Positions 2,204-15,849 of a stretch of 40,133 nt of DNA are shown here, piece by piece (the first letter of the stretch is position 1; each line of letters begins with the position of its first letter). Location of the stretch: the NCBI GenBank assembly GCA_027339965.1, contig DAHWNL010000032.1, positions 1-40,133 on the forward strand, written 5' to 3'. Made by a program: the position numbers and the translations under genes. The notes beneath the pieces are model-generated. The model made no database searches. It was not told the origin of the DNA and saw only the letters and a list, made by a program, of their open reading frames with translations. Source of the DNA: Granulicella sp. Its GTDB lineage: Bacteria > Acidobacteriota > Terriglobia > Terriglobales > Acidobacteriaceae.

Positions 2204-3355
2204 CTAATGGATCTCCTGGTTGATGATGTGCAGGTCGACGTGCGGAGCTTCCGAGAGAAAACGCTGGATGGCCAGGAAATACAGGTACTTGCGCAGGCCG
2301 TGGAGAGCCGAGCGGCCGAACATGGCCTGGGTGATGCGATGCTCGGTGATGAATGCGGCGGTAGCGGAGGCGATGTGCTTGCCTGGGGCAAGATGGATGA
2401 TGTGGGCACCCAGGTTCTCCGCGAACTTGATGCTGGCCTCCAGGTTGCGCTTGCACTCTGCGGACTCATCCTTCTCGGACTGGACGTGGAGAACATAGAG
2501 TTCTCCCCCCAACCCCTCGGCCAGCCGGGCGCCACGGGCAATCAGGTCTCGGGCCTGAGGACGGGAGCTGATGCATACGGCCACCTTCTCCGAGACCGAC
2601 CAGTGCGGGCCAAGCTGCTTGCGCTTGACGTAGTTATCCAATGTTCGGTCGACGGCGCGGGTGACGCGATGCAGCGCCATCTCACGCAAGGCAATCAGGT
2701 TACCCCGGCGGAAGAAGTTGGCAAGAGCACGCTCGGCGCGGTCGACCGGGTAAATGTCGCCGCGCTTCATGCGTGTGACCAGGGCCTCGGGCGTCAGGTC
2801 GGAGATGACGATCTCGTCAGCGCGGTCAAGAACCCAGTCTGGAACCGTCTCGCGGACGGGGATTCCGGTGAGGCTCTGAACGCGGGGGGTAAGGCTTTCA
2901 ATGTGCTGTACGTTGATGGTGCTGAGGACGTCGATGTTGGCCTCCAGAATGAGGAAGACGTCTTCATATCGTTTGGCGTTGCGGCTGCCTGCGATGTTGG
3001 TGTGGGCTAACTCGTCGATGAGCACAACCTGGGGACTGCGGGCGATGATGGCGTCCACATCCATCTCCTGGAAGAGGGTCCCCTTGTAGTCGATCTCGCG
3101 GGTGGGTACGTGCTCCAGCCGGGCGGCGAGTTCAGCGGTAACCTTACGCCCGTGGGATTCGACGACTCCAATCACGACATCCTCGCCGCGCTGGCGGCGG
3201 CGAATGCCTTCGCTCAGCATGCTGAACGTTTTGCCCACGCCAGGGGCGTAGCCCAGGAAGACCTTGAAGCGACCGCGAGCCTTTTCCGGCTCGGCAGCAA
3301 TCAACCAATCTTCGGGAGTTTTGCGGGGTGTAGAGTCGGCTTGCAAATTATACAA
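2204..3355 (-). CDS. kdpD: Stand-alone soluble KdpD N-terminal protein (KdpD domain + Usp domain)
   Basis: KVFLGYAPGVGKT (Walker A), LIDELAHTN, NVQHIESL, GNLIALRE, then a Usp-like domain (VAVCISS...LYVLHV). No TM or kinase part. The start may be TTG 3346. Confidence 0.92.
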   Translation of the reverse strand: MYNLQADSTPRKTPEDWLIAAEPEKARGRFKVFLGYAPGVGKTFSMLSEGIRRRQRGEDVVIGVVESHGRKVTAELAARLEHVPTREIDYKGTLFQEMDVDAIIARSPQVVLIDELAHTNIAGSRNAKRYEDVFLILEANIDVLSTINVQHIESLTPRVQSLTGIPVRETVPDWVLDRADEIVISDLTPEALVTRMKRGDIYPVDRAERALANFFRRGNLIALREMALHRVTRAVDRTLDNYVKRKQLGPHWSVSEKVAVCISSRPQARDLIARGARLAEGLGGELYVLHVQSEKDESAECKRNLEASIKFAENLGAHIIHLAPGKHIASATAAFITEHRITQAMFGRSALHGLRKYLYFLAIQRFLSEAPHVDLHIINQEIH

Positions 3356-3362
3356 TCTCCTT

Positions 3363-4802
3363 GTGAACGCTCAACGTCTGGTGGAAGTCTTCCGGTGGTC
3401 GGCCGCAGCAGTCATGCTGACGGGAATTGTAGCTGTATTTCATCTCTGGGTACACCTCAACTCCACCACGGTAGCGTTGACGTTGCTGTTGCTGGTCTTA
3501 TTTTTGGCCGCGAGATGGGGCTTGCGTTATGCTTTGGCCACGTCCATCGCAGCTACCGCAGCGTATAACTTCTATTTTCTTCGAAAACTTGAGCGTCTTA
3601 CCATCAATGATCCTCAGGTTTGGTTAAACATCTTCGCCTTTTTGACGGTCGCCGTGGTGGGCAGTCGCCTATCAGAGCGGGTGCGGAAGGAAGGCTCCGA
3701 CGCGCGACGCAGGCAGGCAGAGTTGGAGGTGCTGTACGGCTTAAGCCGGCAGCTTCTTCAGACGGAGAACCTGCCCAGCCTGCTCAACGCTATCAGTCCG
3801 GCAATCATGCTGGTGACGCGGGCCGACGCCGTCATGTTGTATCTGCTGGAAGGAGATAGGCGGTATCTGGCCGGAGACGGATCCGGGATTTCGCTGGACG
3901 ATATTGCTTTGCGCCAACTGGCGGAGACGCTGCCTGCTCCCGAGACCACGGTTTCCAAGCAGGCGCGGATTCCGCTGCGCGTGGGTGTCAGGCCGCGCGG
4001 GCTTCTTCTAATCAATGGGGTGAGCCTGTCCGTGGAGACGCTGGAGGCGATTGCGGGATTGATCTCGGCATCGATTGACCGGGCGCAGGCGCTGGAGGAT
4101 CTGACACGTGGGGAGGCTTCCAAAGAGAGCGAACGGCTTCGGTCGCTGATGATCGACTCGATCACTCACGAACTGCGCACGCCGCTAACGGCGATCAAGG
4201 CGGCCGCCTCGACCTTGCTGCTGCCCAAGGAGTTGGATGAAGACGAACGCCGGGAGCTGCTGACGGTGATCAACGAGGAGAGCGACCGGCTGAATCAACT
4301 GGTCTCTGAGGCGGTGGAGATGGCGCAACTGGATACCAGAGAGGTCCACATGACCTTTGCGCCGGCATCCATTGGGGCGCTGGTGGAGAAGGCGCTGACG
4401 TACTGCTCCAGCCTGCTGGACAAGCACGAGGTGAAGGTGGATATACCCGACCTGCCGGCCGTGAAGGCGGACGCGGACTATATCACCAAGGTGCTGACAA
4501 ACCTGATAGAGAATGCGGCGAAGTACTCGGCGGAAGGAACGCCGATCTGCATCTCAGCGGAACTGAAGGACGGTATGGTCAGCGTGAGCGTGGCCGATCG
4601 GGGCATGGGGGTCGATCTATCGGAACAGAGCTTGATCTTTGAACGGTTCTACCGGGCGAACGTTCCCAGCCAGCAGAGTTGGGGGACGGGCATGGGGCTG
4701 GCGATCAGCAGAGCCATCATCGAAGCGCACCATGGGACGCTGTCTGTGACCAGCCAGCTTGGGGAGGGATCGGTGTTCAGCTTTACGCTGCCGGTGGCGT
4801 GA
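3363..4802 (+). CDS. KdpD C-terminal half: 4-TM (DUF4118-like) + GAF-like + HisKA/HATPase sensor kinase
   Basis: Four hydrophobic segments, H-box SITHELRTPLTAI, N-box NLIENAAKYS, DRGMG, FERFYR, GTGMGLAI. Start uncertain (GTG 3363 or ATG 3414). Confidence 0.9.
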   Translation: MNAQRLVEVFRWSAAAVMLTGIVAVFHLWVHLNSTTVALTLLLLVLFLAARWGLRYALATSIAATAAYNFYFLRKLERLTINDPQVWLNIFAFLTVAVVGSRLSERVRKEGSDARRRQAELEVLYGLSRQLLQTENLPSLLNAISPAIMLVTRADAVMLYLLEGDRRYLAGDGSGISLDDIALRQLAETLPAPETTVSKQARIPLRVGVRPRGLLLINGVSLSVETLEAIAGLISASIDRAQALEDLTRGEASKESERLRSLMIDSITHELRTPLTAIKAAASTLLLPKELDEDERRELLTVINEESDRLNQLVSEAVEMAQLDTREVHMTFAPASIGALVEKALTYCSSLLDKHEVKVDIPDLPAVKADADYITKVLTNLIENAAKYSAEGTPICISAELKDGMVSVSVADRGMGVDLSEQSLIFERFYRANVPSQQSWGTGMGLAISRAIIEAHHGTLSVTSQLGEGSVFSFTLPVA

Positions 4803-5323
4803 GACCAACGCGCGACAGGGATGAGCCGGGTGGGCGTTGGTCCGCGGGCGGGTAGCGTCGTGCGGTCTGGGTGGACGAGCAACAGGCGAACAACGGGCGT
4901 TTTGTCGATGAACAGGCGCTTTACTGATGGTTGCGCCGTGCTGGGGTGAGCAGGAGTGGGGTGGGGTTGCCCGGCGCAGAAGGGCGTGCGCTGAGGCAGG
5001 AGTGCTGGGATTGGCGATTCAACATCCGCGTTTCACGCGGAGCGAGTGGCGTGCGAGAGGAGACTTTCGCCGATGACAGTCGCCAACGGGTTCCACCTTT
5101 CCGCCAATCGATCTATGCAGATCTCCTCCATTTTTCTCAAGACAGAGTTTTTGACCCGACCTTAGGATCATTCCGTAATTCCTCTCGTGCGGATAGCGAT
5201 GCCGTGACAGGTTTTCGGTCTGGTGTTTTCAAGCGGGGGGTGCTTCCCCTGGCTCGGCTTGATGGCTTATCCGCAGAACCGAAGTTGAAAACGATTGAAG
5301 AATGGATGCGCCCAGGAGGTTGG

Positions 5324-8300
5324 ATGAGAGCCTTATGTTGTTGTTTGTCTGTCTGCCTGTTGGCGGCTGGAGCAGGGTGGTTCATGCCTGCTGCGGTTCT
5401 GGCCCAAGCGACGACTGCTTCGATTCATGGGATCGTAGCTGATCCGACGGGCGCATTGCTCGCCGGTGCGACGGTGACCGTGACCAATACCAGTACGGGG
5501 ATATCTACGGCACGGAAGACCGATAGGGAGGGATACTATGTGTTTCCCGACCTGCATATTGGGGGTCCATACACGGTTCGAATCGAGGAGACGGGCTTTC
5601 AAACTTCGATTGTGAGCGGTATCAAGCTTGATCTGAGTTCGGAGCGGGAGATCGATGCGACGCTGCGAGTCGGCTCCGCGTCGCAGACCGTTCAGGTGAG
5701 CTCCTCCGCAGTGCAGGTGGAGACGTCTGACGTCCAGCTTAAAACTGTGGTGGGCGCCGCGGAGATCGAAGAGTTGCCGCTGCTCGGGCGAGACGCAGTG
5801 GAACTGCAAAAGACCGCTCCGGGAGTGGTGGAGGCTGACGACCGCGAGGGCACATTCTCCACCAACGGCAGCCAGACTCAGGAGAATTCCTATCTACTGG
5901 ACGGGACCGATATTAACGATATTCTTCTGAATACGCCGGGCATCACGGTCAATCCGGATGCGCTGGCGGAGATCAATATCATCTCCAGCACGCTTGCTCC
6001 GGAGTTCAGCCGCAACTCCGGAGCGATTGTGGATGAGACGTTGAAGAGTGGAACAAATCAGTTTCATGGCAACGGTTTTGAGTTTTATCGCGACACGTTT
6101 CTGAACAACGGAAACTACTTTTCCGCAACCAGGCCGGTCTTCCACCAGAACGTCTTTGGCGGGACGCTGGGCGGGCCGATCCTGAAGGGGCATGCGTTCT
6201 TTTTTGTAGCCTATCAGGGTCTGCGCAGCCGCACGGCGCAGACGCAGCTTACGCAGGTCTTCGATGCGCTGCAGAGGGGCGGTGATTTTTCAGGAGATGG
6301 CGGCTTTTCCAGCAATCCGATTCCGTTCCCTGGCGGTCTCCAGGGCCCGGCAGGCTTTTGCCCCGCGGGAACGCCATGGAACACGTGTTTCCCGAACTCG
6401 CGGGCGCCGGTCTCCGACTTCAATTCGATCGCGCTCAAACTGCTCAATGAATATGTCCCCAAGCCGAACTATACGAGCGGCGGGATCAACTACTACAACT
6501 TCAACGCACCGAATACTGCAGGAGACGATCAGGGCATTATCCGCATCGACGATCAGTTGACGGCGAAGGATGCGCTCTGGGCCTCCACGATCTTTGACTC
6601 GAGCCCCAGCACGAATACTTTGCCGCTGCCATCGACGGAATCCACCGGAACCGGGGCCAATCTGCCGGGATTTGAGGCCGACAATGCGTCGCATATCAAG
6701 ATATTCAATGCTTCGTGGACGCGTCTGATCAACAGTACTACGGTGAATGAGCTGCGAGCCGGTTACTTCCGCTTCAACTTCGCGGAACTGGAGCCGGCTC
6801 CGACGACGCTGGCGGCTCCATCCTCCTTCGGGTTCAATATTGTGCCGCAGGATGCGGCGGCTGGAACTCTGCCGTTCATCAACGTTACGGGATATTTTGC
6901 GCTCGGCTTCAGCACCAATGGACCGCAGCCACGCAAGGATGAGAACTATGTCTACTTCGACAACTTCAGCAAGGTGGTAGGGAGCCATAGCCTGAAGTTT
7001 GGAGCGACTATAGAACGTTTTGTCTTCAGCAATCCTTTCTATTCCGACAATAGCGGCGCCTTCAGTTTTGTGGGCTCCGGAACATACAGCACGGGCGATC
7101 CGGCTGCAGATTTTCTCTTCGGAGTTCCTGCCACCTATAGTCAGGGGTCAGGCTATTTTGTGGATGTGCGGGCCTCGCAATACTATGGGTATGCGCAAGA
7201 CCACTGGATGGTTTCCGATACGCTGACGTTGACTTATGGCCTTGGGTATGACACGGAGACGCCGTTCGAGAACCTGCAATATCAGGGCGTAGGCGTTACC
7301 TGCTGGCTGCCCAGCGATGTGCAATCGAAGGTCTTTCCCGACGCTCCTCCCGGGCTGCTCTATCCGGGCGATGCAGGGTGCAACAGGAACGGCGGGCCGG
7401 TAACGCATTGGGATCATCTGTCTCCGCGGGTGGGCTTTGCCTGGTCTCCGGCGAAGGGGTTAGGCTCCGTCTTCGGGCCGGCGGGCGAACACGCGTTCGT
7501 ATTTCGCGGCGGCTTCGGGATCTATTGGAATCGGCCGCAGGCGGAGGGGACGCAAGAGAATTCGAACGATCCGCCCTTTTCGCTGAATAGCGTGGGAGCA
7601 GCGGGATTGGGTGGAAGTCCGAGCTTTGCGAATCCCTTTCAGGACATCGCTGACAGGCCAGGCGCGTCTTATACGGCAAATCCCTTTCCTTATCAGGTTC
7701 CGAGGCCGGGCCAGAACGTCAGCTTCGCCTCGCTGTATCCACTGGAGATGGATAACCTTACGTCCGCCTTCGATGTTCCATACACGTATAACTTCAACCT
7801 AAATCTTCAGCGGTCGCTGGCCAGCAACCTGGTGCTGACGATTGGCTATGTGGGGTCGCTGGGGCAGAGGCTGATGCGCGCGGGAGAGGGTGACAGGATT
7901 ACGCAGGCCGGGCAACATGCCTGCCTGAGCGGTACGGGAACAGGCGCACCGATCCGTCTGGACGGCGGCACGTTTACTTGCGTGCAACTGGCCTCTGCGC
8001 AGTCGCTCTACTTTCCGGGAGACAAGACGCAGCCTGCAGCTGTGCCGGGTTCCCAGGTTCCAGGACTGTTCCCGAACGGGCTTCCGTATTATCTGTCCAT
8101 CGGTGGAATGTATACGAATGGCTCTTCCAACTACAATTCGCTTCAGGTTTCGCTGGTGAAGGCGCCCTCGCATGGGCTGTACTTTACGCTTGCCTATACG
8201 TACAGCCACGGCCTGGATAATGCGTCGAGTCTTGAGGATTCGGTGGCCAACGGGTATGGGACGAACTATGTGCCGGGGTTCCGGCATTTGAGTTACGGCG

Positions 8301-8911
8301 ACTCAGCCTACGATGCGCGAAATAGGCTGGTTGCTCTCTATGACTACGCGGTTCCTTTGGTGCATGGGCTGGGTGGAGGTCCGTTGGCGCGTTCCATCCT
8401 GGGTGGATGGAACTTCGCCGGAATTACCGCGCTACAGAGCGGCTTTCCGGTGACGATTTACGACGGCGGAGTCTATAACTCGCTGTATTGCGATGAGTTC
8501 AGTTTTGTCAATTGCCCGGACGTACCCAACACATCGACGTTCCGTATTAAGACGCTGAATCCGCGACGGCCGGGAAATTACTGGTTCAATCCCGCCACGT
8601 TCTCCCAGGAGCCGATTGGAACGTTTGGCAATGTGAAGCGGAATTTCTTCCATGGTCCTGGATTCAACTACTCGAATGTGGAGATCTACAAGAATATTCC
8701 GCTGGGAGGTACGAACGCCGCGCGGTATGTGCAGCTTCGGCTGGAGGCGTATAACGTCTTCAACCACGCAAACTTTGCAAACCCAAATGGCAACTACGGT
8801 GCCGGAGCCCCTGCGTTTGGCGCCATCAGTTCGGTTGATCAACCGGTGAACCCCAGCGGTGATCCACAGCCGGCGCGCGCCATTCAGTTGGCTGGGAAGG
8901 TTTACTTCTAG
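5324..8911 (+). CDS. Oar-like TonB-dependent outer-membrane receptor with N-terminal carboxypeptidase-regulatory-like domain
   Basis: Signal peptide, GIVADPTGALLAGATVTVTN, KSGTNQFHG, C-terminal ARAIQLAGKVYF ending in Phe. AGGAGG precedes ATG 5324. Confidence 0.92.
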   Translation: MRALCCCLSVCLLAAGAGWFMPAAVLAQATTASIHGIVADPTGALLAGATVTVTNTSTGISTARKTDREGYYVFPDLHIGGPYTVRIEETGFQTSIVSGIKLDLSSEREIDATLRVGSASQTVQVSSSAVQVETSDVQLKTVVGAAEIEELPLLGRDAVELQKTAPGVVEADDREGTFSTNGSQTQENSYLLDGTDINDILLNTPGITVNPDALAEINIISSTLAPEFSRNSGAIVDETLKSGTNQFHGNGFEFYRDTFLNNGNYFSATRPVFHQNVFGGTLGGPILKGHAFFFVAYQGLRSRTAQTQLTQVFDALQRGGDFSGDGGFSSNPIPFPGGLQGPAGFCPAGTPWNTCFPNSRAPVSDFNSIALKLLNEYVPKPNYTSGGINYYNFNAPNTAGDDQGIIRIDDQLTAKDALWASTIFDSSPSTNTLPLPSTESTGTGANLPGFEADNASHIKIFNASWTRLINSTTVNELRAGYFRFNFAELEPAPTTLAAPSSFGFNIVPQDAAAGTLPFINVTGYFALGFSTNGPQPRKDENYVYFDNFSKVVGSHSLKFGATIERFVFSNPFYSDNSGAFSFVGSGTYSTGDPAADFLFGVPATYSQGSGYFVDVRASQYYGYAQDHWMVSDTLTLTYGLGYDTETPFENLQYQGVGVTCWLPSDVQSKVFPDAPPGLLYPGDAGCNRNGGPVTHWDHLSPRVGFAWSPAKGLGSVFGPAGEHAFVFRGGFGIYWNRPQAEGTQENSNDPPFSLNSVGAAGLGGSPSFANPFQDIADRPGASYTANPFPYQVPRPGQNVSFASLYPLEMDNLTSAFDVPYTYNFNLNLQRSLASNLVLTIGYVGSLGQRLMRAGEGDRITQAGQHACLSGTGTGAPIRLDGGTFTCVQLASAQSLYFPGDKTQPAAVPGSQVPGLFPNGLPYYLSIGGMYTNGSSNYNSLQVSLVKAPSHGLYFTLAYTYSHGLDNASSLEDSVANGYGTNYVPGFRHLSYGDSAYDARNRLVALYDYAVPLVHGLGGGPLARSILGGWNFAGITALQSGFPVTIYDGGVYNSLYCDEFSFVNCPDVPNTSTFRIKTLNPRRPGNYWFNPATFSQEPIGTFGNVKRNFFHGPGFNYSNVEIYKNIPLGGTNAARYVQLRLEAYNVFNHANFANPNGNYGAGAPAFGAISSVDQPVNPSGDPQPARAIQLAGKVYF

Positions 8912-10242: not shown

Positions 10243-11562
10243 TTGAATTCTTCAGCCGCTGAACAAGGTTACCCGGAGGAGAGCCTACGGTATCCGGGAT
10301 GGCGAGTGGTGGTGATCTGCCAGATTGGCGTGCTCACCGGAATCGCCACGATTTTCTTCTCCATTTTTACTCTGTTTCTCAAGCCCTGGCAGGTTGAGTT
10401 TGGGTGGAGCAGAGAACAGATTGCGCAGGCGTTCAGCACTGCCGCGATTACGGTCGCAATCTGCTCGCCCCTGATGGGGAGAGTTCTGGATCGATTTGAG
10501 CCGCGGAAGGTGATTGCCGCCATGATGGTGGCCTTCGGGCTGGGTTTTGCGTCGCTTGCCTGGCTGACTCCATCTACCGGACATCTTTATAGCACTGCGG
10601 TTTTTCTGGGCGTGACTGGCACGGGAACCTATCAGCTTGGCTACGCTCGGATTGTGGCCAGTTGGTTCCAGCGCCGTTTGGGTACGGCGCTTTCTGTAGT
10701 GGTAGCCGGCTCAGGCGTGGGGTCACTGTTTTTCCCTCCACTGGTGCAGCACTGCATTACGGTTTATGGCTGGCGCAGCACCACGCTGCTGCTGGCGGCT
10801 CTGCCCGTGCTGCTCGGGGCGCCACTCACCTTCCTATTTGCACCTTCTGCTGGACGTTCATCCGCGCCGCGGGATGAGAGGAAGGATGCAGCGCCGGGAT
10901 TGGGCTGGAGGCAGGCACTGGCGGGCCGCAGTTTCTGGCTGCTGGCGCTTGGAGTGTGTGCGATGTCGTTGGCCGAGAATGGCATCACGGTGCATCTGGC
11001 TCCGATGCTGAGCGATCGCGGACTGGCGGCCTCGCATGCAGCGCTGGTCGTCTCTTTTCTGGGCGGGGCCAGCGTTGGCGGTAGGCTGCTGCTCGGTTGG
11101 GTGCTGGATTATCTTGAGGGATCCTATCTTGCGATGGGTTCGTTGCTATTGGCCGGAGCCGGATTGTTTCTGCTGGGCCACGCGCATAGCTTTCCTGCGG
11201 CGATTGGCGCTGCTGTGCTTGCAGGGCTGGGCATGGGGTGCGAGTTCGATCTGATGCCTTACATTCTGAAACGCTACTTCGGGATTCGTTCGTTTTCCAC
11301 CATGTATGGGCTTCTCTACACGGGCTATGCGACGGCGGGGGCTATTGCTCCGCTGGTGATGGGCAGGATCTATGACGCAACCGGGTCCTATACCGTGATT
11401 GTCTCCATCTTTTCGGGGTGTACTGCGGTTGCAGGCCTTTGCATGTTGGCGTTGCCTGCCTACACCAACGCCGAAGAGATTGCTGTTGGCGCTGAGTCCC
11501 GGGAACCATCGGCGAAGGTTGCGGACGCGCGGGACGACGCTGATCCGGAGTACGTCGGCTGA
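10243..11562 (+). CDS. MFS transporter (OFA/MCT-like)
   Basis: About 12 hydrophobic segments; motif A GRVLDRFEPR and GWVLDY; WFQRRLGTALS. Confidence 0.9.
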   Translation: MNSSAAEQGYPEESLRYPGWRVVVICQIGVLTGIATIFFSIFTLFLKPWQVEFGWSREQIAQAFSTAAITVAICSPLMGRVLDRFEPRKVIAAMMVAFGLGFASLAWLTPSTGHLYSTAVFLGVTGTGTYQLGYARIVASWFQRRLGTALSVVVAGSGVGSLFFPPLVQHCITVYGWRSTTLLLAALPVLLGAPLTFLFAPSAGRSSAPRDERKDAAPGLGWRQALAGRSFWLLALGVCAMSLAENGITVHLAPMLSDRGLAASHAALVVSFLGGASVGGRLLLGWVLDYLEGSYLAMGSLLLAGAGLFLLGHAHSFPAAIGAAVLAGLGMGCEFDLMPYILKRYFGIRSFSTMYGLLYTGYATAGAIAPLVMGRIYDATGSYTVIVSIFSGCTAVAGLCMLALPAYTNAEEIAVGAESREPSAKVADARDDADPEYVG

Positions 11563-11673
11563 GCGTGCTGAGTCTTGCGGGAGATAGAGAGCGCGGGGCT
11601 CCGCTTTGCGGTTGGCGGGGGTGCGGGTGTGCGTCTGCCTGGCCGTAACGGTTTTCGGCAATAATATACAAGG

Positions 11674-11901
11674 CTAACCAAATTCAATTGTAATCCCGGC
11701 TAGAAGCTCCTCTGGTTGAATTACCAATCCTCGGCAAATCTCTTCCATCGTATCCAGCCGCATATTAAACAGGCCGCGCTCGATTCTGCTTAAATAAGGC
11801 CGGGTCAGATTGATGCGTCGGGCCAATTCTGTCTGAGAAATACCCTTTGCCGACCGAATGGTCTGTATACGCACTCCGAGTTGTTCAGCGAAATCATGCA
11901 T
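11674..11901 (-). CDS. XRE/Cro-C1 HTH regulator (controller-protein-like), IS passenger
   Basis: LGVRIQTIRSAKGISQTELARRINLTRPYLSRIERG; the stop codon lies inside the left IR. Confidence 0.88.
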   Translation of the reverse strand: MHDFAEQLGVRIQTIRSAKGISQTELARRINLTRPYLSRIERGLFNMRLDTMEEICRGLVIQPEELLAGITIEFG

Positions 11902-11993
11902 GGATTGTGTAAAGTTTAGCACAATACATGTTTTCCTATGCCACATGCCTTGCCTTTCGTAACCAACAGGAGCATTATCATCCAAGGTGCATC

Positions 11994-12446
11994 ATGGCAA
12001 TCGACCTACAGACCATAGAAGAACGTTTGGCGAAGGCCAAGGAAGAGGCTGCGTTTTGGGAGAAGGCCCGAGCAATCTTGGAGGACCCGAGATTGAAGGA
12101 CCTTATTACGCCACAACCACGCCCGGTATCGTCGGCCCAAAGTACGTTTACGCAGGCGGCAGCGCCTCGCGCCTACGGCGAACTGAAAAGCCGCGTGTAT
12201 GCTGTTTTACCCGACGCCGATACCTACGCAAGCTCGACCACGCAGCAGATCGTGGACAATCTGATCGAAGCGGGCTACGTATTTCAAGCGAAAGAGCCGA
12301 CGATAGCAGTTAACGGGGCGCTGGTAGCGCTTGAGGGCCAAGGGCTCGCGGAGGCGTATGGGAAGCGCGGGAACGCAAAACTGTGGAGGAAGAAGAGACA
12401 GAAAAGGGAGGAGCAAAACCAAGAGGCTCCCGAAGGAGCCTCCTAG
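11994..12446 (+). CDS. Hypothetical protein (N-terminal coiled coil, possible C-terminal winged helix), IS passenger
   Basis: MAIDLQTIEERLAKAKEEAAFWEKARAIL heptad pattern, then TTQQIVDNLIEAGY...VNGALVALE...KLWR; AAGGTG upstream. The fold is inferred. Confidence 0.7.
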   Translation: MAIDLQTIEERLAKAKEEAAFWEKARAILEDPRLKDLITPQPRPVSSAQSTFTQAAAPRAYGELKSRVYAVLPDADTYASSTTQQIVDNLIEAGYVFQAKEPTIAVNGALVALEGQGLAEAYGKRGNAKLWRKKRQKREEQNQEAPEGAS

Positions 12447-12638
12447 ACATTGACGTTAGCCTACACCCGGAGACTTGGTAAGGGCCGAAGGGTGGGCGAA
12501 CAGAGAGGAGGTGAGCAGCTTGCTCCTCTTTATCACAGAGCAGATTGGGGTCCCGCAAGGGGCCCCGTCTGTTCACTGCCACAGTAACCCATTTTCCCAA
12601 TCATTGCAAGATAACCGTTAGGGGAGTACCCTTTTGGT

Positions 12639-12815
12639 ATGAAGATTGAGCCATCCTCATCAAACCAGGAGAACCAGGCATTTACGAATGCCCTTTCTAA
12701 GGTTCTTTCCGCTCCTCGGACAAAGTCAGCAGGTCTCTCGCGGAAACGAACCGAAACACGATCCTCTGGTATCTCTTCCGTAAAGGCCCCCTCAATTGGC
12801 GGCGCTTCGCGTTAG
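12639..12815 (+). CDS. Small basic ORF (58 aa) convergent on the transposase
   Basis: MKIEPSSSNQENQAFTNALSKVLSAPRTKSAGLSRKRTETR...; GGGGAG upstream; its stop overlaps the transposase stop. Confidence 0.45.
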   Translation: MKIEPSSSNQENQAFTNALSKVLSAPRTKSAGLSRKRTETRSSGISSVKAPSIGGASR

Positions 12816-13762
12816 CATGACCCTGCCACCTGTCCGGTAACCTCTACCCAAGTCAGCCGCTTCCCCGCGATCTGCGATAAGGCTATAGCGAATCTGTCAG
12901 CATTCGTTACCTTGGGATCCTTCCGACTGCGATTGTTGAACCGGAACGATTGCTCGTCAAGGTAGCGGAACAGATGGAACGGTGCCACGCTCACATAGGT
13001 TCCATTCAGGCACCGCTTCACAAGGCTCCAGAAGTTCTCCAACCCGTTCGTGTGGATGTGGCCCCGCACGTATTCAGCAGCGTGGTTCACAATTTGGTGA
13101 ACGTATTCCTTTTCCAGTCCCCAATAGGAATGCAGTTCATCGGTCAGAATCTCCGCGCCGGGTTCGACATGCTTCTTGATGTGGCCTTGCAGCGTGGCCC
13201 GCTCCCGGTCATCCACAGCCATCGTGCGAACCTTGCCGCCCCGCTCAAGGATGCCGAAAGCGATGGACTTTCCTCCCCGGTTTGTAAGCTCCATCTTCTT
13301 GAGCCGCTTCGATATGTGCATATTCCGAGCCTTGCCGCCGATGAACGATTCATCTACTTCAACCTGTCCGCCCAGCTTGGTATTGTGTTCGTCCTGTAGC
13401 GCCTTGCGGAGCCTCTGAAGCATGAACCACGCGCTTTTCTGAGTCACGCCGATGGTGGCCGCAACCTCATAGCTGCTGATCCCGTTCTTGCAGTTCACCA
13501 GCATCCACAGCGTCACAAGCCACTTGTCGAGCGAGAGCGGCGAATCTTCAAACACCGTGCCGACCTTGACGGAAAACTGCTTCTTGCAAGCCTTGCACTT
13601 CCAACGCCACTGCGTAGCCAGCCAATAGTGCTCCTGTCCGCCACAATTGGGGCAGGTAGGCTTCCCGTCCGGCCAGCGCATCGCAGCAACCGCATCAACG
13701 CAGTTCTGAGGGTTGGCGAAGAATTTAATTGCCTCTGTTAGGGTTGGCGTCTGTTCGCTCAT
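12812..13762 (-). CDS. IS1595-family (ISXO2-like) transposase
   Basis: Zn ribbon CPNC...CKAC, HTH, VEVDESFIGG, ILTDE, HTNGLENFWSLVKR, YLDEQSFRFN; uninterrupted frame. Confidence 0.96.
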   Translation of the reverse strand: MSEQTPTLTEAIKFFANPQNCVDAVAAMRWPDGKPTCPNCGGQEHYWLATQWRWKCKACKKQFSVKVGTVFEDSPLSLDKWLVTLWMLVNCKNGISSYEVAATIGVTQKSAWFMLQRLRKALQDEHNTKLGGQVEVDESFIGGKARNMHISKRLKKMELTNRGGKSIAFGILERGGKVRTMAVDDRERATLQGHIKKHVEPGAEILTDELHSYWGLEKEYVHQIVNHAAEYVRGHIHTNGLENFWSLVKRCLNGTYVSVAPFHLFRYLDEQSFRFNNRSRKDPKVTNADRFAIALSQIAGKRLTWVEVTGQVAGSC

Positions 13763-13875
13763 CTCGTTAACCTGATAGAACAAGTATGGCTTAATTCCTT
13801 TGGTTAGTCAAGTATATTATTGCCCGGTTTTCTGATGGTACGCAGCAGCGGATCGAGGGATGGATGAAATCCTGC

Positions 13876-15849
13876 TCATTGCTCTTGTCTGGCTGTCTGA
13901 AGGTATTCCACATACCCGAGCAGCGCTCCCCAATGGTAGAAGCGGTCGCTGTTCTTCACGTCGTCGCCCTCGCCGAGGATGGCGTTGTAGTTTTCATGAA
14001 CGTGGCGATGCTGTTGCCACTCGCGGAGAAACAAGGCGTAGGACCTGGACGCTAACGCAGCCTGCGCCGTCGGCAGAGGGTAGTTGCAGAGGCCAAGGTA
14101 GACGAGGTAATTCATGGGGCCCCAGATGCGGCCTCGCCAATAGTTCTGATCGCGAAATGCGGGATCGTTTCGCGCAATCGAGGGGAGCACCCACTGGCCC
14201 CAGAACTCGGCCGGGTTCATCAGGTGTTGCCGCACCATCTGGCTTGCCTGTGCCGCAGTGGGAGCATGCGCCAGCATGGGATAAAAGTTGGTGGGAGAGA
14301 GCCGCCGGCTGAACTTGCCCGTATGCAGATCCTTGTTCAGGTAGATTCCCTCGGCCGGCGCCCAAAGCGTCTGCAACTTCACGCGAAACGCCGCACTGCG
14401 CGCTCGCAATGCCTTCGCATCCGCAGTCTTGTCCAGCACGTCGGCAATGGTGGCCAATGCATCGCAGTCGGCGATGTACAGGCTCATCAGACCGACGTCG
14501 GCGAACTCGAGTCCATGCCGCCTGGGGTCGTATACGGCATCGTCGTACATCGGGCTGTTATCGAGGCCAGACTCGAGGATCGCTCCCGCGCGGGTTCCAC
14601 GCGAGCCATCTTCGAGATTGCCGGGCGGGTTCTGTCCATCGCTGCCCCAGGCCAGGTAGCCGTCCATCTGGCGATGTCTGGGCCACCACTGGTTCCACTT
14701 CAGCAGCGCGGGATAGGCATCCTGAAGCAGCCATCGGTCGTGGTACTTCTGGTACAGGCCAAGCACCGTGATGGAGCCCACAGGGGGCTCTGAGCGGTCA
14801 AAGCTCTTCCAATTTCCACCCCTGGCGTAGTTGGGGATGAAGCCCTCGGCGGTGCTGGTGCGCAGCGTTTCGATGGCGTCCGCATAGGCCAGATCGCGAT
14901 CGCCTACCGACGCCATGGTAGCCGCGAAAAAGGTGTCCCAGTCAAAGATGACGTACCCGCCCCACTGAACGCTCCAGATGCGGCTGACCGGAGAGACGAC
15001 CCGGCCTTGCTCGGGTTCGAAGATTGTGTCCCAGCCCAGCGTGGTCTGGATCGCATCCACGATGGGACTGGTCTTTGCATTGCTGGAGAGCGACGCCTGA
15101 TAGGCTGCATGCTGCCGGTGAAGGATTGCTTTGATCTGTTCCAGGCTGCGCCTATGGCCTGTGCTGATCGCCACGGGACCGGTGAGATCGGCTGCGAAGT
15201 AGGGGCCGCCGACGCCGGGTTGCGGCAGCGTGGCTGGGGATGGTGTTTGGCAGGTGCAGAAGACATGGATGGTTGCCGTGGGCGTGATGGCCTCGATGGC
15301 ATCGCCATGCCAGCCCACCATTCCGGGGCGGTTCCACAGCAAGTCGACGGAAAAGAATGCGGTTGGCGCAAGTCCCCCTGATGGGATCGCCACAGGGCTG
15401 ACCAGCATCACCAGGTCTGCGCCGTCGTGAGCGCTCTGCACCCGCCACTGGTCGGATTTCCAGGACACCTGCAGATCGGTGTAGCTGCCGTCCCACGCAT
15501 GAGGGCCGGGCCTCACCTGCTCCGCTGTGGGATCGAGCCTCCCAATGAGCACCTCGGGCAGAAAGGCATTGCCCGATTCCGTGGTGTTGTGCTCGATGCC
15601 GAGATGGATCGCCAGACCCTCCGGCAGCAGCACCTGAGTGGTGACGCTGCGCGTATCCCAAGTGTTCCATCCCCGCGCCAGACGCTGCTGTACGGCCTTG
15701 TACTCCGCCGACTCCGGCGGCAGCGGAACCACTGCGGCGGCACTTGGATGCGCCTGGCCAAACATGGGCAGCGAATACCCGAATGCCGCAGCCAAAGCAA
15801 CTCTGCAGAGAAACGCCGCAGTGCCTCTGGAAGCAATGCCAACTCTCAT
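13876..15849 (-). CDS. Secreted (alpha/alpha)6-barrel glycoside hydrolase, GH63/MGH1/trehalase-like
   Basis: Signal peptide; FDWDTFF, SEPPV, ESGLDNSPMYD, YWRGRIWGPMNY, HENYN. Confidence 0.85.
   Translation of the reverse strand: MRVGIASRGTAAFLCRVALAAAFGYSLPMFGQAHPSAAAVVPLPPESAEYKAVQQRLARGWNTWDTRSVTTQVLLPEGLAIHLGIEHNTTESGNAFLPEVLIGRLDPTAEQVRPGPHAWDGSYTDLQVSWKSDQWRVQSAHDGADLVMLVSPVAIPSGGLAPTAFFSVDLLWNRPGMVGWHGDAIEAITPTATIHVFCTCQTPSPATLPQPGVGGPYFAADLTGPVAISTGHRRSLEQIKAILHRQHAAYQASLSSNAKTSPIVDAIQTTLGWDTIFEPEQGRVVSPVSRIWSVQWGGYVIFDWDTFFAATMASVGDRDLAYADAIETLRTSTAEGFIPNYARGGNWKSFDRSEPPVGSITVLGLYQKYHDRWLLQDAYPALLKWNQWWPRHRQMDGYLAWGSDGQNPPGNLEDGSRGTRAGAILESGLDNSPMYDDAVYDPRRHGLEFADVGLMSLYIADCDALATIADVLDKTADAKALRARSAAFRVKLQTLWAPAEGIYLNKDLHTGKFSRRLSPTNFYPMLAHAPTAAQASQMVRQHLMNPAEFWGQWVLPSIARNDPAFRDQNYWRGRIWGPMNYLVYLGLCNYPLPTAQAALASRSYALFLREWQQHRHVHENYNAILGEGDDVKNSDRFYHWGALLGYVEYLQTARQEQ

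Follow-up and report, generated by a model that had tools for sequence, protein, structure and literature searches.

The stretch of DNA analyzed here (the window) consists of 40,133 nucleotides of Granulicella sp., a member of the Acidobacteriota (GenBank assembly GCA_027339965.1, contig DAHWNL010000032.1, positions 1 to 40,133). Window positions 11657-13824 hold an insertion sequence (IS) of the IS1595 family, and this element is an intact transporter IS (tIS), with passenger genes between its inverted repeats as well as a transposase. Its boundaries are marked by an 8-bp sequence, CGGTTTTC, that is present at both outer edges of the repeats; therefore, the element is 2168 bp long. The transposase has the N-terminal zinc ribbon and the ISXO2-like DDE domain that characterize the IS1595 family, and the terminal inverted repeats together with the perfect 8-bp duplication agree with this assignment. 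Three other genes lie within 11657-13824, that is, between the repeats: a gene for an XRE-family helix-turn-helix (HTH) repressor, an open reading frame (ORF) of 150 codons (ORF150), and a small ORF (ORF58). Along the window the features are as follows.

11649-11656, no strand: target-site duplication, left copy CGGTTTTC, read directly and identical to 13825-13832
11657-11682, + strand: terminal inverted repeat on the cargo side, GGCAATAATATACAAGGCTAACCAAA, with the GGCAATAATATAC... termini common to 58 related elements
11674-11901, - strand: XRE-family HTH repressor gene, 75 amino acids, outward-reading (Pfam HTH_3, 2.6e-12)
11904-11925, no strand: operator-like palindrome ATTGTG-N10-CACAAT, 22 bp, beside the XRE start (1 match in the window against 0.01 expected)
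11994-12446, + strand: ORF150, 150 amino acids, of an unnamed family (homolog clusters, AlphaFold2 [AF2] model, Foldseek)
12409-12446, - strand: hairpin 1, terminator-like on the transposase strand, in the last ORF150 codons, with a 12-bp stem, a UUCG loop, and then a U-rich run
12502-12531, + strand: hairpin 2, followed by CTCTTTATC, a weak terminator-like site for ORF150 (predicted fold)
12538-12573, + strand: hairpin 3, with a GCAA loop, very stable (-31.1 kcal/mol on the + strand versus -20.3 on the - strand)
12639-12815, + strand: ORF58, a diverged member of the small basic protein of the clade (profile match in the N-terminal half only)
12812-13762, - strand: IS1595-family transposase, 316 amino acids, ATG at 13762 (Pfam, NCBIfam, alignment)
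13783-13811, - strand: promoter-like site for the transposase, with a -35 box, TTGACT, inside the inverted repeat (consensus match only)
13799-13824, - strand: terminal inverted repeat on the transposase side, pairing with 11657-11682
13825-13832, no strand: target-site duplication, right copy CGGTTTTC, read directly from the sequence

The inverted repeats are 26 nt long and complementary at 23 of the 26 positions, and the element ends in GGCAATAATAT and GGTAATTATAT; the repeat pattern matches twice in the window against 0.00 expected (none in 100 shuffles). The insertion lies between two genes that converge on it, an MFS transporter gene (10243-11562, + strand) and a gene for an MGH1-like glycosidase (13876-15849, - strand). 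GC content is 0.48-0.58 within the element versus 0.58-0.65 outside. The insertion is probably recent. Thus, much of what the initial annotation of this DNA had reported (near-perfect inverted repeats, a perfect 8-bp target-site duplication, an intact transposase, a position between convergent genes, and an IS1595 transporter element with passengers) is upheld. Its estimate that more than half of the element is cargo depends on how the small ORF is counted: 1155 of the 2168 bp lie outside the transposase unit, as the estimate would have it, but only 982 bp (45%) remain once that ORF is assigned to the backbone, as argued below.

The transposase matches Pfam DDE_Tnp_IS1595 (PF12762) over the entire profile (positions 1-153 of 153; 5.8e-40, 137 bits, cut-off 27) and Zn_ribbon_IS1595 (PF12760) with 1.3e-11 and 44.7 bits (cut-off 25.4); with the NCBIfam model transpos_IS1595 (NF033547) the score is 179 bits (cut-off 75). 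In all, 56 transposases were aligned to find the columns in which the window residue is shared by at least 98% of the rows. There are 68 of these, including the zinc-ribbon cysteines, D144, D215, E249/N250, and K256/R257, and the window protein has the common residue in all 68; therefore, no near-invariant position is altered, and the transposase looks intact. The TTGAC box of the promoter-like site is retained in the transposase-side repeat of relatives. The element is a probable member of the 'ISNwi1+' group (Siguier, Gagnevin & Chandler 2009), a tentative placement. ISfinder distinguishes the ISNwi1 subgroup by its end sequence and catalytic motif, and the ends of the element resemble the ISNwi1 pattern 'ggnnatTAT'.

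Insight into which parts of the element are constant and which are variable comes from its relatives. A transposase search of genome contigs gave 591 relatives, of which the best 80 (52-92% identity), almost all from metagenome-assembled genomes of Acidobacteriota, were kept; the ends of each element were then located by a script that looked for GGCAATAATATACTTGAC-type termini and an 8-bp duplication. Complete elements with a perfect 8-bp duplication are present at 58 of the 80 loci. Another 9 have both ends and an imperfect duplication, and 13 have one end only in the available stretch, many of them being cut by the end of the contig. The complete elements range from 1788 to 4274 bp (median 2478), and all 58 contain 0.8-3.3 kb of extra DNA, so that there is no bare 1-kb IS among them. 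In 55 of the 58 the transposase adjoins one repeat, and in the other three (L006, L008, and L054) cargo precedes the transposase. The window element belongs to an IS1595 clade that is common in Acidobacteriota, and the usual layout of this clade is an inverted repeat, the transposase, a convergent gene for a basic protein of about 60 amino acids, a variable cargo slot, and the second inverted repeat.

This clade shares with the IS1595 tIS elements the zinc ribbon and ISXO2-like DDE transposase, the repeats that start with GG, the 8-bp duplication, and the passengers inside; its lengths are 1.8-4.3 kb, and the extra DNA in every complete element accords with published accounts of IS1595-family transporter ISs. 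Passages of PMC3129680 and PMC9330008 credit the tIS concept to Siguier et al. 2009. What sets the window element apart is its cargo, since literature searches found no XRE plus ORF150-family combination in an IS1595 tIS. The target-site duplications of the clade show a preference for C at position 1 (41 of 58) and G at position 8 (40 of 58) around an AT-rich core, for example CTAGTTAG and CAAATTAG; CGGTTTTC of the window is atypical. The closest transposase, that of L001, is 92% identical in amino acid sequence, and the similarity of its DNA to the window ends exactly at the transposase stop codon. Beyond that point, at L001:4949-5680, there is a small ORF of its own and then the start of a gene for a P-loop ATPase of the SMC_N/AAA_23/AAA_15 type, which is cut by the contig end. 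More distant IS1595 transposases (36-40% identity) are found on plasmids of Methylocystis (L081) and Roseomonas (L082); in both cases hypothetical genes follow the transposase, with a PIN-domain gene also in L082. The annotation of plasmid relatives goes no further than 'IS1595 family transposase'.

The small convergent ORF was counted as cargo in the initial annotation, and the relatives argue for moving it to the backbone. When the ORFs of 55 elements were compared all-against-all, a small basic protein of about 60 amino acids emerged as one cluster present in 46 of the 55, with the motif F..F...L..VLSVPHSEIKAKLDAEKR and, after it, a basic tail. In 36 elements its gene is convergent with the transposase gene and abuts or overlaps the transposase stop, in 2 it is adjacent to the transposase on the same strand, and the remaining 8 have it at another place in the cargo; an overlap of a few bases with the end of a larger upstream gene is frequent. 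(Examples, from loci L004-L078, are L076:4951-5130 and L017:4942-5103, both on the - strand.) Among 24 pairs of sequences, which are not independent of one another, differences at codon positions 1, 2, and 3 number 287, 251, and 549, as expected of a coding gene.

Searching for ORF58 by tblastn gave no match at the 80 loci. However, a profile of 38 small proteins, built without the window and run on the six-frame translations of the window and L001 (1175 segments), found the small ORF of L001 (3.1e-7) and window positions 12615-12812 on the + strand (1.6e-4), with the next best match at 0.74. ORF58 aligns only over its N-terminal half (NQAFTNALSKVLSAPR; positions 10-32 of the profile hidden Markov model), and the central SEIK..AEK helix is unrecognizable; consequently, it is a diverged and possibly decaying member of the family. 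Like its relatives, it is convergent with the transposase, the stop codons of the two genes overlapping, and it is a backbone gene of the IS clade rather than cargo. The family is large, with at least 1625 clusters at E<=1e-3 (1879 candidates), all of them 'hypothetical' and none with a Pfam domain. The small protein has no Pfam, PHROG, or PDB sequence match, and AF2 gives a helical hairpin of low confidence (predicted local distance difference test score [pLDDT] of 67). It may be an accessory factor in transposition.

The true cargo of the element is thus XRE plus ORF150. The XRE gene ends with a TAG stop at 11674-11676, inside the inverted repeat, as had been seen before, and the C-terminal residues of the protein depart from those of homologs (72-82% identity) where the gene enters the repeat; it retains all 36 invariant columns of its alignment. 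Its best match in the defense libraries is the PADLOC profile Control_protein (5.9e-14, positions 10-74 of 77), and it also matches a PHROG transcriptional repressor (9.7e-11) and the PADLOC capH profile, while its matches to antitoxin families in NCBIfam all fall far under the cut-offs. XRE and ORF150 diverge from starts that are 92 bp apart, and the palindrome, a putative XRE operator, lies inside that gap. This arrangement is reminiscent of the controller (C) proteins of restriction-modification systems: XRE is small, it matches Control_protein, and the palindrome is just upstream of its own gene. Generic XRE similarity may explain the match. Furthermore, unlike a restriction-modification unit, neither the element nor its flanks contain an endonuclease or methyltransferase gene.

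ORF150 consists of a heptad helix (residues 5-29), a disordered linker (39-57), a winged helix (59-133), and a basic tail. In the first of these, L5-I8-L12-A15-A19-W22-A26-L29 have the 3-4 hydrophobic spacing of heptads; the AF2 model, made from an alignment of 36 sequences, has a helix-strand-helix-helix-strand-strand domain with a pLDDT of 88-96 over residues 61-130. The divergent gene with coiled-coil and winged-HTH character that had been proposed from the sequence is therefore recognizable in this combination of heptad helix and confident winged helix. The family comprises 36 homolog clusters (42-100% identity), which furnished the alignment and the AF2 input, and 153 representative clusters at E<=1e-3; its members are nearly all stand-alone proteins of 130-170 amino acids. 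(One representative match, P0229, of 2673 amino acids, was set aside as a spidroin-type repeat protein.) Across the 36 sequences there are 14 invariant and 20 near-invariant columns, every invariant one being kept in ORF150, and conservation is highest in the N-terminal helix, which has many invariant residues, and in helix 3 and the wing. We infer that the N-terminal helix serves for dimerization or for binding a partner.

ORF150 has no sequence match in Pfam, NCBIfam, PADLOC, PHROG, or PDB, and tblastn against plasmids gave no match. Foldseek, which had been suggested for 11994-12446, returned generic winged helices only, both against PDB (the Fur DNA-binding domain, the linker-histone globular domain, Z-alpha, and PadR; best E 4.8e-3) and against the viral models of BFVD (best E 2.5e-3). 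An Atlas search yielded only clusters of hypothetical proteins from Acidobacteriota and a HARE-HTH lead that scored 0.88. ORF150 and 35 close homologs have no match to HARE-HTH (PF05066), which is found in 2 of 36 remote relatives, P0280 (38.5 bits, cut-off 25.9) and P0198 (24.1 bits, under the cut-off), so kinship with HARE-HTH is a lead only. H-NS and Rok, the latter with a winged helix, are built of an oligomerization helix, a linker, and a DNA-binding domain. ORF150 has a similar layout of oligomerization-type helix, linker, and winged helix, with a basic tail in addition, and linker-histone globular domains are among its best fold matches; however, neither H-NS nor Rok was matched by sequence or by a specific fold, and the likeness is one of architecture alone.

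Between ORF150 and the transposase lies the spacer that had been described as rich in hairpins, and the predicted RNA fold bears this out: 12410-12640 (+ strand) forms three stem-loops with z = -3.65, and 0 of 200 shuffles fold as well. Hairpin 1 (stem-loop at 12423-12442) falls within the last eight codons of ORF150 and accounts for 95% of the ensemble at -21.8 kcal/mol. Hairpin 3 has z = -4.70 on the + strand, where 0 of 200 shuffles are as stable, and z = -1.79 on the - strand. The C-terminal peptide of the family, ...QEAPEGAS, is the translation of hairpin 1, which makes it possible to follow the hairpin through the homologs. The EAPEG tail is kept in 16 of the 36. In others, double changes at paired stem codons preserve Watson-Crick pairing at the codon level (T/V in 2, S/E in 2, and L/R in 1), and the tail of P0030, LPKEPPRH, is the hairpin 1 DNA of the window read in another frame. 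The remaining homologs have one pair-breaking single change, PAEAG tails that can encode a hairpin too (3), other tails (2), or tails that are missing or truncated (8). From this pattern, hairpin 1 appears to be conserved at the level of the nucleic acid. By their anatomy, the hairpins look like terminators or insulators.

Another reading of this 190-nt spacer is that it encodes a structured non-coding RNA that partners ORF150 or XRE, and such an RNA partner was indeed proposed at the outset. The spacer does fold better than its shuffles, and hairpin 3 is both very stable and strand-asymmetric. Yet a search of 11400-14100 with Rfam 15 gave no match at E<=1, the structure consists of three separate stem-loops of terminator-like anatomy, DNA comparison matched the spacer to none of the 80 loci and to nothing else in the window, and no promoter was detected for it. 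In addition, the relatives mostly lack a spacer altogether, their small ORF abutting or overlapping the cargo gene upstream. We therefore consider an RNA partner highly improbable. The hairpin motif GGCTCCYNNRGGAGCC occurs once in the window and at none of the 80 loci, and thus it is not a general repeat of these genomes.

Taken together, these features lead us to favor, with a confidence slightly better than even, the view that the cargo is a self-regulated two-gene DNA-binding cassette, insulated by hairpins and devoid of an enzymatic effector, which is carried as an interchangeable passenger by the IS1595 clade. An XRE dimer would bind the 22-bp palindrome and set the level of XRE itself and of ORF150. 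ORF150 would dimerize through its conserved N-terminal helix and bind nucleic acid through its wing and basic tail. The three hairpins, rather than being a separate RNA partner, would stop transcription and thereby insulate the cassette from the transposase unit that converges on it; in particular, the hairpin in the last eight ORF150 codons would be a UUCG-loop terminator of the transposase strand. The cassette as a whole would be one of many swappable passengers in the clade.

Several points weigh against this view. Binding, expression, and termination are all predictions from sequence. The operator is assigned from one palindrome, and the covariation of hairpin 1 is deduced from the amino acid sequences of the homologs. 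Hairpin 2 by itself is no better than shuffles (z = -0.88), and hairpin 3 is not followed by a U-run. The pLDDT of the ORF150 N-terminal helix is only 58-67. For a helix that recognizes DNA, helix 3 of the winged helix (IAVNGALVALE) has an unusually hydrophobic sequence; consequently, the domain could bind protein or RNA instead. Finally, as discussed next, the ORF150 homologs found elsewhere are known from their protein sequences, any location of theirs in IS1595 elements being conjectural, and the co-occurrence of XRE with ORF150 is deduced from matching sizes of the longest contigs, for 2 of the 3 XRE clusters other than that of the window itself.

How widely the cassette has spread was examined at the 80 loci, and it proved not to be conserved among these related IS1595 elements. 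ORF150 has no tblastn match at any locus, and XRE has one weak match, at L011, which is outside the element of that locus; when the cargo DNA was compared with those loci and with other parts of the window, the inverted repeats alone matched. A profile search detected a remote homolog of ORF150 at one locus, L008 (E 5.6e-6; hhalign probability 95%, E 2.6e-8). There it precedes the transposase at 1514-1981, with both genes on one strand, and belongs to a distinct IS1595 element of 3205 bp (L008:673-3877), whose repeats are perfect over 30 nt, whose duplication is CCAAGTAC, and whose transposase is 58% identical to that of the window. The L008 element sits within a larger inverted repeat (624-648 / 3878-3902) and has, at about 2020-2133, a tRNA-like stretch that ends in CCA and is not called by ARAGORN.

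Outside of these loci, the XRE-ORF150 pair seems to travel together: XRE clusters P0302 and P0304 match ORF150 clusters P0012 and P0023 in having equal longest contigs (41986 and 3421) and near-equal contig counts. Many ORF150 homologs are on contigs of 1-4 kb, such as multi-copy elements yield in assemblies. One may ask whether the cassette is simply a functionless hitch-hiker, captured by chance and now decaying. Its absence from the relatives by tblastn would fit, as would the loss of the family C-terminal motif from ORF58 and the divergence of the XRE C-terminus at the repeat. The state of the genes argues otherwise, in that ORF150 and XRE have each kept every invariant column, both frames are open, and the ORF150 family is broad; we regard mere hitch-hiking as very unlikely.

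The same distribution bears on whether the cassette controls transposition. Here, the two regulators would set the output of transposase, either by controlling antisense transcription that enters the convergent transposase gene from the ORF150 side or through read-out of XRE across the repeat into that gene in a circle or tandem. Phage Mu has a divergent repressor/ner arrangement, to which such a layout would be similar. The outward-reading XRE gene stops 17 nt short of the element tip with no intervening terminator, ORF150 and ORF58 both head into the transposase gene from its 3' end, and the remote homolog in L008 places ORF150 in a second IS1595 element. Nevertheless, with the cassette in 0 of the 80 relatives by tblastn and 1 of 80 by profile, it seems not to be needed for transposition in the clade, and the lack of tblastn matches to either gene inside the elements argues that it is dispensable. 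Moreover, the palindrome does not recur near either repeat or the transposase promoter, the three hairpins separate ORF150 from the transposase, and other cargo families recur as well (DUF3800 in 7 elements, RelA_SpoT in 3). A role in controlling transposition is consequently rather doubtful.

That other families recur becomes evident when the slot of the relatives is inspected. A search of 118 cargo ORFs against Pfam gave a match for 23, leaving 95 with none. Apart from DUF3800, whose seven elements include L006, and RelA_SpoT, the slot contains DUF6941 (2 elements), XRE HTH (2 elements), HipA N- and C-terminal domains, GmrSD, PemK/MazF, GNAT with TacA, HEPN, DUF1828, DUF2513, and a weak Cas2-like match. 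Of 38 cargo proteins scanned with PADLOC, 3 were recognized (PDC-S33, HEC-06, and PDC-M24B). Some labels fall on the same cargo (RelA_SpoT/PDC-S33, GmrSD/HEC-06, and DUF1828/PDC-M24B), and the loci with cargo of the toxin-antitoxin (TA) or defense type are L007, L013, L023, L033, L040, L044, L062, L073, L074, and others.

This company makes it reasonable to ask whether XRE and ORF150 are an addiction or defense module, with ORF150 as a growth-inhibiting or anti-phage effector and XRE as its antitoxin or repressor, which would stabilize the IS or protect the host. HipA, PemK/MazF, GNAT with TacA, RelA_SpoT, GmrSD, HEPN, and DUF1828 in the slot, together with the three PADLOC assignments, speak indirectly for this idea, as do the controller-protein and capH matches of XRE and the many short, multi-copy-like contigs that carry ORF150 homologs. 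On the other hand, ORF150 has no toxin, nuclease, or enzymatic domain and no match in Pfam, NCBIfam, PADLOC, or PHROG, the winged helix being its sole confident domain. XRE and ORF150 are divergent instead of forming the co-transcribed pair of a type II TA system, and the antitoxin-family matches of XRE are far under the cut-offs. Such a module is, in our view, unlikely. The initial annotation had raised a protein-plus-RNA addiction or defense module; no toxin or defense effector was detected and the genes are divergent, not an operon, which does not favor it. Its more general statement, that the cargo is neither resistance nor metabolic, agrees with an XRE HTH protein and a coiled-coil/winged-helix protein.

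Tn3-family transposons are known to have toxin-antitoxin passengers. The conserved transposition backbone and variable slot of this IS1595 clade are what one sees in transposons rich in defense or TA genes, although the window cargo, in contrast to theirs, includes no recognizable toxin or defense effector. Cargo rich in defense genes is established for Tn7-like transposons (PMC8649781). Relative to Tn7-like and similar transposons, the elements of the IS1595 clade are much smaller and have a single-gene transposition machinery.

A bolder combination of these observations can be imagined, to which we assign only a slim chance. The clade would be a modular shuttle, made of the transposase, an unrecognized accessory protein of about 60 amino acids, and a slot that spreads TA, defense, and regulatory cassettes, and ORF150 would be an IS-borne, XRE-controlled nucleoid-associated 'stealth' protein that tunes the expression of element or host DNA.

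As an element it is ordinary, since passenger genes in IS1595 elements have been known from 2009 on. Its value lies in being a clean, intact example of a two-regulator cassette whose ORF150 family, with its 153 representative clusters, is unannotated. The relatives add a regular backbone-plus-slot design, often filled with TA or defense genes, in Acidobacteriota, whose mobile elements have been little studied, and a large unnamed family of small basic proteins (the at least 1625 clusters above) tied to the transposase gene. A search of full-text literature found no account of IS1595 cargo in Acidobacteria, of an XRE-ORF150 cassette, or of the conserved small ORF, some of which the founding 2009 paper or ISfinder/TnPedia may cover. 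If any one of the cassette, the slot design, and the small protein should prove in experiments to be as proposed, it would widen the known ways in which tiny transposons move adaptive or selfish genes.

The remainder of the window is ordinary chromosomal DNA, with Kdp genes, an outer-membrane barrel protein, carbamoyl-phosphate synthase, and others. Inside the outer-membrane barrel gene (4931-8911), ARAGORN calls a 'tRNA-???' with a four-base anticodon at 5360-5452 (+ strand), which is probably a false positive. A KdpD sensor domain and a DUF4118-HisKA-HATPase kinase usually form one protein; in the window each has an ORF of its own, and the two ORFs, which run in opposite directions (2204-3355, - strand, and 3264-4802, + strand), overlap by about 90 bp and adjoin a response regulator gene (1443-2171, - strand) and kdpA (2-976, - strand).

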